NCBI GenBank assembly: GCA_000165345.1
Contig: CM000429.1
Coordinates: 704,001 to 768,000 of the forward strand
DNA: 64,000 bases
Reading direction: 5' to 3'
Part shown: in pieces, positions 9,676 to 12,270 of the stretch
Layout: the number at the start of each line of letters is the position of its first letter
Numbering within the stretch: position 1 is the first letter of the stretch
Notes under the pieces: generated by a model
Told to the model about the DNA's origin: nothing
Seen by the model: only the letters and a program-made list of their open reading frames with translations
Databases searched by the model: none
Translations under genes and position numbers: made by a program

Positions 9676-12270
9676 ATGAGTATAAATAAGAAAGATGCTA
9701 AAATAGAAAAAAAGCAAAGATTACCTGAAAAATGCACATTTATTGGAAATCTTGAAACATACAAGATTACAGATACATTACAGGATAGTTTATATGGTAA
9801 GGTATATCAAGGATATGGTGAGGATAGTGGAAAATTAGTGGCTATAAAAGTATTAAGTAAGAATGATATTATTACAAAAGAAATGAACAGGTTATTACCA
9901 GAGACTCCATTAGCCGAAGTATTTTTTGCAGATGAAATGGCAAACCATGAATATCTTGCAACCATAAGGGATGTATTTGAAACAGAAGATTCTCATTGTA
10001 TAATAAGCGATTTAGCAGATGGAGAAGATTTGTTGGAATTATTAAGAAAAAATAGATATGGGTTGAGTGAAGATCAAACAAGAATATGCATAAAACAAGC
10101 AGCAATAGCTTTAAGTAAGTGCCATGAAAGAGGATTTGCATTACAAGATTTTAGTTTAGAGAATTGCTTATTATATTCAGTAATTGAAGATAAAGATTTG
10201 AATGATGAGAATCAAAGTGAGAATATAGAAATGGAAAATGATAATGAATCTATTAAAGGTGAAATTTTTAATGATAGTAATAGTGATTGTAATAAAATTG
10301 TAAAAAAGAGATTTCAGATTAAGGTTTGTGATCCAGGTCAAGCAGTGAGATTTGGTAGATATAGCCAAGAAATTGAAATGCCAGTTCCATATTTAGGTTG
10401 TGTAGGTAAGAAGTTTAGACCACCTGAGATATTTGCAGGTAAGCCATATATAGCAAGTAAGGTCGATAGTTGGTGCTTGGGTTGGAGTACATTTTATTTA
10501 TTATTTGGAACAGAATTATTTGAAAGTGTTCATAATATAGATAATGATATAAGGTGGCAGTGGTATAGTATGGGTTATAGAGATTATTTATATACATATT
10601 TGGGTATAAAAGAAAAATTAAGTATTGACGCACGTTCATTTATTGAATCATTAGTTCATCCAGATCCAATACATAGAATAAGTATAAAAGAAGCATTAAA
10701 TCATCCATTTTTAAGAGATGTGAATGAGCATGAGAATTTAACATTGGAGGATTGGGGGAGGCCTTTATATAATGAATTAAAAAATTCATTAAAAATTGAA
10801 AAAAGTGAAAATTATACAATACCATTTATTCCAAAAGTATATAAAACAAAATATTTGAATTTGTATTGTACTGGTGACAAGCCGAGTGGATATTTTCCCA
10901 TTAATTATAAGAATAATAAAGATCAATTGGGTGGAATGAATAATTCAAAATTGGTAAAGTTTCAGAATCAAAGATCTGTCTTAAATAATAATATACCTAT
11001 AACTACTAGATCTAATAATAATAACAATAGTCAAAATTCAATAGGGTTAACAAGTATTTTCCAAAAGAGAAAAGTAGGTAAAGGCAATGGAATTACCACA
11101 GATAGTTTAAATGGGAGAGGCATAATGAATAATAGTACATCAACGATTATGATGAATAGTGGTCTTAATAATAATAATAATAATACTCAACAAAAAAAAG
11201 TCTCAATAAATCAAAACCAAGTAGGTTGCGGTTTATCTGCTGGACTTGGAATGGGTGGAATTATGGATGTTGGATATAATCAAAAATTATTTTATTATCA
11301 AGGGCAATACCAACAACAGAGCCATAATCAAAATTATTATGGATATGGATATAATCCATATTATAGTTCGGGTTATATGTCGGGAATGGGAACTGTTCAT
11401 CCTCAATATTATGTTGTTCCTTCTCCTTTAGGTGTTAGTGGTATTAATAATACTACACAAACAAAAACGGAGAGCACTCAAAATATTTCTGTAACGGGAA
11501 GAAAAGAAGAAGCAAAAAAAGAAAAAGTTACAGAAAAAAATGACATTGATGAGTGTAATAGATCTAAATTAACTACTCAGCCATCATTATTATCAAATCG
11601 TAATGCAACAACAGCATTAAATACTGTAAATTCTGCTACTAATATTGAAAATAATACTTCTACTGCTACTATTACTAGTACTGCAACAACTTCTCCTTCA
11701 GTAGTAACTCCGAATATTACAAATATCAATTCTTCTATAATTTCATCTAATACTGTTTCTAAAGCAGCAGAATTGAATAATGGCCTATCTGGGAGAGGAA
11801 TAGGAATAGGAATGGGAGCAAATTCTGTAATGTCTTATCAAAGATACGGTGGTTTGTCAGCAGTGGGTGGGAGAGAAGGTTATTCTACCTCATATGTACC
11901 AGCTCCTAAAGTAGGGATAAATGCAAATATTCAACAATTAGGTTACGGAGGAATCGCATCAGGAACAAAAATGGTTGGAACAGCGAGTAGTAATAATAAT
12001 AATAATAATAATAATAATAATAATGGCTTTGTACAAAATGTTAAAAACTTTTCTTATGTGCCACCTCCATTAACAAGTAGATATAATTATAATAATAATA
12101 ATAATAATATTGGAGAAGGAGGAGGCCGTCAGCATCTGTTCCAAAACTACCATCAAGCCAAAAACGTTAGTAGTAGGTCAGGAGGGAATGTAAGTGGAAC
12201 AGTCGGAGGTTTAAGTGCAAGGTTAAACTTTGGATCAATGAGTTATGTGCCACCAATAATAAGGAGGTAG
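9676..12270 (+). CDS. protein kinase-like protein, probable pseudokinase, with long N/Q/G/S-rich C-terminal tail
   Basis: Kinase fold motifs present: VAIKVL (beta3 Lys), catalytic-loop-like HERGFALQDFSLENCLL, KVCDPG in place of DFG, and FRPPEIF (APE-like). The Gly-loop is degenerate, HRD is replaced by LQD, the catalytic-loop Lys is replaced by Ser (DFSLEN), and DFG is DPG. The likely true start is Met at 9676 (MSINKK) rather than the ORF-track start at 9646. Confidence 0.65.
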   Translation: MSINKKDAKIEKKQRLPEKCTFIGNLETYKITDTLQDSLYGKVYQGYGEDSGKLVAIKVLSKNDIITKEMNRLLPETPLAEVFFADEMANHEYLATIRDVFETEDSHCIISDLADGEDLLELLRKNRYGLSEDQTRICIKQAAIALSKCHERGFALQDFSLENCLLYSVIEDKDLNDENQSENIEMENDNESIKGEIFNDSNSDCNKIVKKRFQIKVCDPGQAVRFGRYSQEIEMPVPYLGCVGKKFRPPEIFAGKPYIASKVDSWCLGWSTFYLLFGTELFESVHNIDNDIRWQWYSMGYRDYLYTYLGIKEKLSIDARSFIESLVHPDPIHRISIKEALNHPFLRDVNEHENLTLEDWGRPLYNELKNSLKIEKSENYTIPFIPKVYKTKYLNLYCTGDKPSGYFPINYKNNKDQLGGMNNSKLVKFQNQRSVLNNNIPITTRSNNNNNSQNSIGLTSIFQKRKVGKGNGITTDSLNGRGIMNNSTSTIMMNSGLNNNNNNTQQKKVSINQNQVGCGLSAGLGMGGIMDVGYNQKLFYYQGQYQQQSHNQNYYGYGYNPYYSSGYMSGMGTVHPQYYVVPSPLGVSGINNTTQTKTESTQNISVTGRKEEAKKEKVTEKNDIDECNRSKLTTQPSLLSNRNATTALNTVNSATNIENNTSTATITSTATTSPSVVTPNITNINSSIISSNTVSKAAELNNGLSGRGIGIGMGANSVMSYQRYGGLSAVGGREGYSTSYVPAPKVGINANIQQLGYGGIASGTKMVGTASSNNNNNNNNNNNGFVQNVKNFSYVPPPLTSRYNYNNNNNNIGEGGGRQHLFQNYHQAKNVSSRSGGNVSGTVGGLSARLNFGSMSYVPPIIRR

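Follow-up and report, generated by a model that had tools for sequence, protein, structure and literature searches.

A myzozoan protein kinase family with a conserved, non-canonical active site, represented by cgd1_3230 of Cryptosporidium parvum

Pseudokinases are defined in sequence by loss of the VAIK lysine, the HRD aspartate, or the DFG aspartate, and the canonical catalytic loop is given as HRDXXXXN, a formula in which the catalytic-loop lysine is not included (PMC7586955). Catalytic residues can also occupy unconventional positions, with the relocated lysine of WNK as the precedent (PMC7586955). In the kinome survey of Artz et al. (2011), the Cryptosporidium parvum protein cgd1_3230 was described as having a long C-terminal extension and no orthologues outside Cryptosporidium, and it was placed with cgd7_1190 in one OPK clade. 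Elsewhere, calmodulin-dependent phosphorylation of MBP was reported for an immunoprecipitate of PfPKRP (PF3D7_0311400), a protein of 295 kDa whose catalytic domain is N-terminal (PMC4154858). The gene encoding cgd1_3230 lies in a 64,000-nucleotide stretch of DNA (the window; GCA_000165345.1, contig CM000429.1, positions 704,001 to 768,000 of the forward strand), and all positions below are those of the window. An earlier note on this DNA, made from its letters, had called the product a probable pseudokinase with a tail of prion-like composition. From its sequence, cgd1_3230 is best placed in a distinct, ancient, and so far unnamed myzozoan kinase family on a probably CAMK-like branch, and we lean towards its being a rewired, active or atypically active non-RD Ser/Thr kinase whose active site has been shaped by selection and not by decay.

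The gene is a complete, intronless coding sequence on the forward strand (9676 to 12270, stop included). Its open reading frame (ORF) of 864 amino acids begins at the first ATG, at 9676, ends with a TAG at 12268 to 12270, and is preceded by an in-frame stop at 9628. Through sequence strings shared with the supplementary alignment published by Artz et al. (2011), the product was identified as cgd1_3230, which is already annotated as a protein kinase; a literature search for cgd1_3230 and PFC0485w returned mention of cgd1_3230 in the 2011 survey only, along with one paper on CLK. An ORF artefact or a wrong gene model can be rejected: two C. parvum assemblies (GCA_015245375.1 and GCA_035232765.1) each call an identical 864-amino-acid product, on contigs of about 920 kb; the in-frame stop lies upstream of the first ATG; and the orthologues stay collinear as far as the C-terminal motif.

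The Pfam Pkinase profile (PF00069) matches residues 40 to 346 significantly (E = 2.2e-31), placing the protein in the kinase superfamily, and the domain as delimited by Pfam, the alignments, and an AlphaFold2 (AF2) model extends over residues 26 to 346 (9751 to 10713, forward strand, as are all features of the gene given below). The register of its motifs was taken from alignments to solved kinases, made with phmmer from the single sequence and with the family profile. The motifs that had been listed earlier (the Gly-loop, VAIK, LQD, LQDFSLEN, DPG, and PPE) are present in the register then given; the alignments to solved kinases confirm the deviant subdomain residues and rule out a mis-registered catalytic loop, the one error that the earlier note had itself allowed for.

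In the N-terminal lobe, the degenerate Gly-loop LQDSLYGKV (QxSxxG; L35 to V43, 9778 to 9804) aligns with LGSGAYGEV, with the first two glycines gone and the third (G41) and V43 retained. The beta3 VAIK (V55 to K58, 9838 to 9849) supplies Lys58, and the alphaC segment PLAEVFF (9907 to 9927) supplies Glu81. The catalytic loop FALQDFSLEN (F154 to N163, 10135 to 10164) aligns with IVHRDLKPEN and keeps Asp158 and Asn163, with the histidine replaced by Leu156, the arginine by Gln157, and the catalytic-loop lysine by Ser160; as no arginine precedes the catalytic aspartate (L156-Q157-D158), the kinase is of the non-RD type. The DFG equivalent, VCDPGQA (C218-D219-P220-G221; 10324 to 10344), aligns with VDFG and retains Asp219, with Pro220 in place of the phenylalanine and with an invariant Gln222. 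In the P+1 loop and APE equivalent VGKKFRPPE (10402 to 10428), P249-P250-E251 aligns with APE, and Glu251 is invariant together with Lys245 and Arg248, which stand six and three residues before it. Subdomain IX, KVDSWCLGW (10459 to 10485), aligns with DxWSxG, keeps Asp264, and is a family signature, and the conserved arginine of subdomain XI is R334. Between beta7 and beta8, the alignment and the AF2 model place a Cryptosporidium-specific, acidic and asparagine-rich insert (residues 167 to 214, 10174 to 10317) that is predicted to be disordered, varies in length, and is missing in the chromerid and dinoflagellate relatives.

Relatives of this protein extend far beyond Cryptosporidium. A word-indexed search returned orthologues in C. 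canis (75% identity), C. ryanae and C. bovis (67 to 68%), and C. muris (59%), as well as homologues at 35 to 40% identity in Vitrella, Gregarina, and many dinoflagellates. This search missed the C. ubiquitum protein (P0058) that an exhaustive search found, so its absences are not evidence of a missing homologue. The exhaustive profile search, run over 1.84 billion cluster representatives, yielded 395 proteins at E ≤ 1e-30; look-ups added C. ubiquitum, a second Vitrella copy, Chromera, Gregarina sp., Porospora, and Perkinsus, and the named members further include Symbiodinium, Effrenium, Alexandrium, and Prorocentrum. Identity between cgd1_3230 and other members of the family ranges from 35 to 77%. 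On the evidence of these matches, the 2011 statement that cgd1_3230 has no orthologues beyond Cryptosporidium is outdated.

Key columns were read from the best 150 representatives, clustered at 50% identity and aligned to the family hidden Markov model, and the counts given for the core family refer to the 110 representatives with the full signature, which come from Cryptosporidium, gregarines, chromerids, Perkinsus, and dinoflagellates, with smaller denominators for some columns. The signature comprises x-Q-D-x-S-L-E-N, C-D-P-G-Q-A, G-K-x-F-R-P-P-E, and D-S-W-C-L-G-W, and all four motifs occur in cgd1_3230 (ALQDFSLEN, CDPGQA, GKKFRPPE, and DSWCLGW). Among the catalytic residues, Lys58 is present in 91 of 91 core representatives, Glu81 in 90 of 93, Asp158 in all 110, and Asn163 and Asp219 in 109 of 110 each; similar values hold for the structural residues (E251, 107 of 107; D264, 106 of 107; R334, 101 of 101) and for the P+1 loop (K245, 104 of 107; R248, 107 of 107). 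The deviant residues Q157, S160, P220, Q222, K245, and R248 are equally invariant from Cryptosporidium to dinoflagellates. Because the odd motifs do not vary across the family, they are read as selected family signatures and not as decay, and judging from these columns purifying selection acts over this whole span on the odd motifs and on the canonical catalytic residues alike. A single representative (P0084) has lost both D219 and N163, indicating that these positions can drift once the constraint is lifted.

None of the three residues whose loss marks a pseudokinase is missing from cgd1_3230: K58, D158, and D219 are present and aligned, and the alphaC glutamate (E81) and N163 are likewise retained. 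By the standard sequence definition, the protein is therefore not predicted to be a pseudokinase, and the earlier assignment as a probable one finds no support in a family of 110 representatives in which K58, E81, D158, N163, and D219 are near-invariant. The same note had reasoned that loss of the catalytic-loop lysine together with an altered DFG usually means no or atypical catalysis; the losses are real, but single deviations of this kind occur in the active kinases PLK4 and CK2. PLK4 reads HRDLTLSN (sequence of PDB 3cok), with the catalytic-loop lysine missing, and CK2 alpha has DWG for DFG and basic residues six and three positions before its APE glutamate (SRYFKGPE), the same spacing as that of K245 and R248.

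A true pseudokinase or scaffold, in which the fold is kept, perhaps as a nucleotide-binding switch, and partners are bound through surfaces and tail motifs with no phosphotransfer, nevertheless has something to recommend it, although we consider it somewhat unlikely. The joint loss of the first two Gly-loop glycines, the catalytic-loop lysine (S160), the HRD histidine and arginine, and the DFG phenylalanine speaks for it, and the strongly conserved surface motifs DSWCLGW and FRPPE would fit a binding interface. But all three defining residues persist, and near-invariance of K58, E81, D158, N163, and D219 over a very deep phylogenetic span would be unusual for a scaffolding pseudokinase. Moreover, each single deviation is known from active kinases (PLK4 and CK2 by their sequences), and the immunoprecipitate of PfPKRP, a probable sister, had kinase activity.

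The unusual active site can be followed through a graded series of relatives. Canonical CAMK-like kinases combine HRD, the catalytic-loop lysine, DFG, and GT-P. Oomycete proteins from Thraustotheca and Lagenidium, with 2 to 3 kinase domains each, combine HRD, serine, DFG, and V-G-K; a sister group that includes Plasmodium and Cystoisospora proteins combines xRD, serine, [TN]DPG, and F-G-K-x-F-R-P-P-E; and the core family, from Cryptosporidium to dinoflagellates, combines xQD, serine, CDPG, and G-K-x-F-R-P-P-E. Mean identities (0.53 within the core, 0.32 between core and sister group, 0.27 between core and oomycete proteins, and 0.24 between core and canonical kinases) agree with the nesting of this series, in which the sister group and the oomycete forms with canonical HRD and DFG appear to link the core family to CAMK-like kinases.

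The sister group consists of Plasmodium proteins of 2,454 to 2,975 amino acids with an N-terminal kinase domain (P0116 and P0124) and also of a Cystoisospora protein named "pik3r4 kinase-related protein" (P0131). It shares with the core SLEN, DPGQA, GKxFRPPE, and a degenerate Gly-loop, LQxAxYGxV, but differs in keeping the arginine (xRD), in having phenylalanine for W266 and [TN]DPG for CDPG, and in its huge C-terminal extensions. By these motifs, PKRP-type kinases are a sister group of the core family and not its orthologue. The sister group probably corresponds to PfPKRP (PF3D7_0311400) and to the cgd7_1190 group of Artz et al., with PfPKRP placed in it by size and architecture only; a word-indexed search with the P0116 kinase domain gave just two matches and missed P0116 and P0124 themselves. 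The oomycete tandem kinases (Thraustotheca clavata and Lagenidium giganteum; P0095, P0105, P0120, and P0132) resemble the core in the serine of HRDxSLEN, in VGK, and in a degenerate Gly-loop, but they keep canonical HRD and DFG, carry 2 to 3 kinase domains per protein, and are about 27% identical to the core. They look like an intermediate state towards the Cryptosporidium-type active site.

Across these groups, serine at the position of the catalytic-loop lysine and lysine in the P+1 loop go together. The serine is accompanied by the lysine in 129 of 133 sequences, and the P+1-loop lysine is found in none of the 24 sequences that retain the catalytic-loop lysine. As judged from the alignments, the association of Ser160 with Lys245 is real, yet it probably reflects few evolutionary events.

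If cgd1_3230 is an active, rewired kinase, its domain would bind Mg-ATP and work on serine and threonine. With Gln157 in the non-RD position, activation-loop phosphorylation would not be needed, and Pro220 of DPG may limit flipping of the DFG segment and so fix one conformation. The invariant basic pair K245 and R248 might make up for the lost catalytic-loop lysine (Ser160) or render it unnecessary; alternatively, this pair could form a P+1 pocket favoring acidic or phosphorylated residues, as in CK2, and a further option is that K245 clamps E234, an invariant activation-loop residue. A conserved segment behind the kinase domain (residues 382 to 406) would pack onto the kinase core in a cis-regulatory manner, and the disordered tail of about 445 amino acids would act as a linker and as a docking region through three conserved SYVPP motifs, with its polyasparagine (poly-N) tracts being neutral microsatellite expansions.

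Several observations weigh against this interpretation. In a gapless alignment, K245 and R248 occupy the positions of P202 and L205 of PKA, residues that we take to line the P+1 pocket; since K245 is at P202 and not at T201, a compensating role for it is speculative. Two Gly-loop glycines, the catalytic-loop lysine, the HRD histidine and arginine, and the DFG phenylalanine, which is a regulatory-spine residue, are missing at the same time, a severe loss, and a domain that binds nucleotide yet transfers no phosphate could likewise keep the lysine, the two aspartates, and the asparagine invariant. The covariation of Ser160 and Lys245 is largely a single phylogenetic event and not many independent ones. 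The link between PfPKRP and the sister group comes from size and architecture alone, and kinase assays on immunoprecipitates may carry co-purifying kinases. Finally, an AF2 model of the full-length protein docked no SYVP motif on the kinase domain.

The changes around the phosphates could also mean that the fold has been put to another use, such as ATP hydrolysis, AMPylation, or phosphorylation of small molecules, which would explain a conserved but non-canonical site. The whole set of phosphate-region changes (Gly-loop, S160, and DPGQ) is conserved, and atypical catalysis in kinase folds is documented (PMC7586955). We nevertheless regard such repurposing as very improbable: the elements that serve a peptide substrate (the P+1 loop, Glu251, Asp264, and R334) are conserved, the nearest profile relatives among solved structures are ordinary CAMK-group protein kinases, and there is no sign of any specific alternative activity.

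Some members of the family carry additional domains. In six of them (P0011, P0065, P0066, P0067, P0070, and P0071), N-terminal SAM and globin domains precede the kinase domain; these SAM-globin-kinase proteins derive from transcriptomes and metagenomes of marine protists (MMETSP, JGI, and Logan), and their globin domains match Pfam Globin at E = 1e-12 to 1e-22. Four others (P0072, P0073, P0077, and P0086) have the SAM domain only and no globin. A literature search on globin-kinase fusions in dinoflagellates returned nothing relevant. The domain layout suggests kinases regulated by haem or gas, and the fusion of putative SAM and globin sensors to the same type of kinase fits a regulated enzymatic output.

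The gatekeeper position of cgd1_3230, by alignment to CpCDPK1, where it is glycine, is Ser111 (10006 to 10008). This residue is a small serine in the Cryptosporidium and chromerid members and a phenylalanine in the dinoflagellate members. If its pocket binds ATP, bumped kinase inhibitors could hit cgd1_3230 as an off-target. These features can be assembled into a bolder proposal, that of a myzozoan clade, related to kinases of Plasmodium, coccidia, and oomycetes, with a different catalytic architecture, in which the P+1 lysine would replace the catalytic-loop lysine (compare WNK), DFG would be locked by proline, the globin-driven members of the dinoflagellate type would be regulated by haem or gas, and cgd1_3230 would be a target of bumped kinase inhibitors via Ser111; taken as a whole, we consider this proposal doubtful.

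The AF2 model of residues 1 to 425, built from 48 sequences, has a predicted local distance difference test score (pLDDT) of 85.4 and a predicted template modeling score of 0.86, with low confidence at the N terminus, at residues 179 to 199 within the 167 to 214 insert, and at the C-terminal end. Beyond the kinase domain, the alignments and the model identify the conserved segment IPFIPKVYKTKYLNLYCTGDKPSGY (residues 382 to 406, 10819 to 10893), which is modeled at a pLDDT of about 83 to 95 with a helix at 387 to 397 and is conserved in Cryptosporidium, gregarines, and chromerids. In this model, it probably packs against the core of the kinase as a tail acting in cis.

The remainder of the protein is a C-terminal tail (residues 426 to 864, 10951 to 12267) rich in N, G, S, T, Q, and Y (16.4, 11.6, 11.4, 8.4, 5.9, and 5.2%, respectively), a low-complexity composition that confirms the earlier description of an N/Q/G/S/T-rich tail. 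In the full-length AF2 model, pLDDT is below 50 almost throughout residues 419 to 864, one short, low-confidence helix at 423 to 426 is the tail's only secondary structure, and neither docking of the SYVP motifs nor structure in the tail was predicted. The tail contains four poly-N runs, the longest of which is encoded by a perfect (AAT)11 array (11991 to 12024), and smaller (AAT)n arrays lie at 11166 to 11185 and 12083 to 12109. C. ubiquitum has such runs in a different number and at different positions, and C. canis and C. muris lack them; within the window, poly-N runs of at least 5 occur in 10 of the 27 large ORFs (at least 150 amino acids), several of which have a similar N+Q maximum. The tracts look like neutral microsatellite expansion.

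What is conserved in the tail is a set of short motifs. The alignment of orthologues shows three SYVP motifs, STSYVPAP (11884 to 11907), NFSYVPPPLTSR (12046 to 12081), and SMSYVPPIIRR at the extreme C terminus (12235 to 12267). All three SYVPP motifs are conserved in C. parvum, C. ubiquitum, C. canis, and one further Cryptosporidium-like sequence, and the second is near-identical among them; C. muris has 2 to 3 copies, and the proteins of C. bovis and C. ryanae, which are shorter, have none. Unlike the poly-N runs, the motifs are conserved in five Cryptosporidium lineages. Further conserved islands are FQK(R), VSINQNQ, and a Y/G/Q/N-rich patch (residues 542 to 572, 11299 to 11391), the stretch quoted in the earlier note, whose core, YYGYGYNxYY, is shared with C. 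canis. The tail looks like ordinary fast-evolving disorder with a few such islands and can be read as a linker with putative docking motifs.

The tail had also been called prion-like in composition, which is fair as far as composition goes; the poly-N runs, however, are non-conserved (AAT)n microsatellites typical of this genome. That the tail drives self-assembly of the kinase as a functional domain of the prion-like or phase-separating kind seems improbable to us. Residues 511 to 570 are indeed 72% N, Q, G, S, or Y and 3% charged, the tail is predicted to be fully disordered, and the YYGYGYNxYY core is common to C. canis. However, its poly-N is made of perfect (AAT)n arrays that vary between species and are missing in C. 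canis and C. muris, such tracts are common in neighboring genes, and the maximum N+Q content (0.36 to 0.38 per 60- to 80-residue stretch) is matched by other ORFs of the window. The tails of the orthologues in C. bovis and C. ryanae are far shorter, and conservation concerns short motifs and not composition. For the Y/G-rich patch, a condensate or prion-like role is conceivable but speculative.

The window is 21 to 30% G+C and has long, uninterrupted ORFs. A gene for an EF-hand protein (6029 to 8050) is divergent from the kinase gene, and the two are separated by an unusually long intergenic region of about 1.6 kb (8051 to 9675, about 21% G+C), within which no ORF of at least 60 amino acids was found at 8500 to 9645. 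A degenerate 20-bp tandem repeat of 3.2 copies (9613 to 9675) lies directly 5' of the start codon. Convergent with the kinase gene is an uninterrupted ORF of 3,184 amino acids on the reverse strand (12477 to 22031) with no Pfam domain; the two C. parvum assemblies give products of 2,517 and 1,443 amino acids for it, and its gene model is unsettled. Neither neighbor offers a functional link to the kinase, and scans of the window with Rfam and for tRNAs gave no match.

What these comparisons add to the published description of cgd1_3230 are orthologues far beyond Cryptosporidium, signature motifs and an apparently graded origin, the association of Ser160 with Lys245, and the SAM-globin-kinase relatives. 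In the old, widespread kinase family that the protein represents, strong purifying selection acts on a non-canonical active site. Should the family prove active, it would provide a new conserved solution for a protein kinase without a catalytic-loop lysine, with DPG, and with almost no Gly-loop, and it would caution against calling pseudokinases by inspection of motifs alone. As judged from its sequence, cgd1_3230 is specific to the parasite's lineage and has no close human counterpart, and its serine gatekeeper bears on the selectivity of bumped kinase inhibitors. The SAM-globin-kinase relatives point to an unexplored class of kinases with which marine protists would sense gas or redox state.

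Among solved structures, the best profile matches of cgd1_3230 are CAMK-group kinases, especially apicomplexan calcium-dependent protein kinases (CDPKs) and CaMKII (PDB 3lij, 3igo, and 6w4o; E = 1e-35 to 1e-31). They share its fold, with all subdomains aligning in register, but have canonical GxGxxG, HRDLKPEN, DFG, and GT..APE and are only about 20 to 25% identical to it. CDPKs carry EF-hands, whereas a Pfam scan of the 864-amino-acid protein gave no EF-hand match at E values up to 1 and no domain besides the kinase. CDPK membership is rejected on this ground, and AGC membership is rejected for want of a Pkinase_C match. Classical pseudokinases (Tribbles, STK40, EphB6/EphA10, and PSKH2) resemble it in a degenerate Gly-loop and an altered DFG or HRD (PMC7586955), but each lacks one or more of the beta3 lysine, the HRD aspartate, the DFG aspartate, and the catalytic-loop asparagine, all of which cgd1_3230 keeps. 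Single features recur in PLK4, where the catalytic-loop lysine is missing as well, in CK2 alpha, which has no DFG phenylalanine and a basic pair at -6 and -3, and in WNK, a precedent for displaced catalytic residues (PMC7586955). None of these three combines all of the changes seen in cgd1_3230 and none has DPG, so that they are analogies and not family-level homologues.

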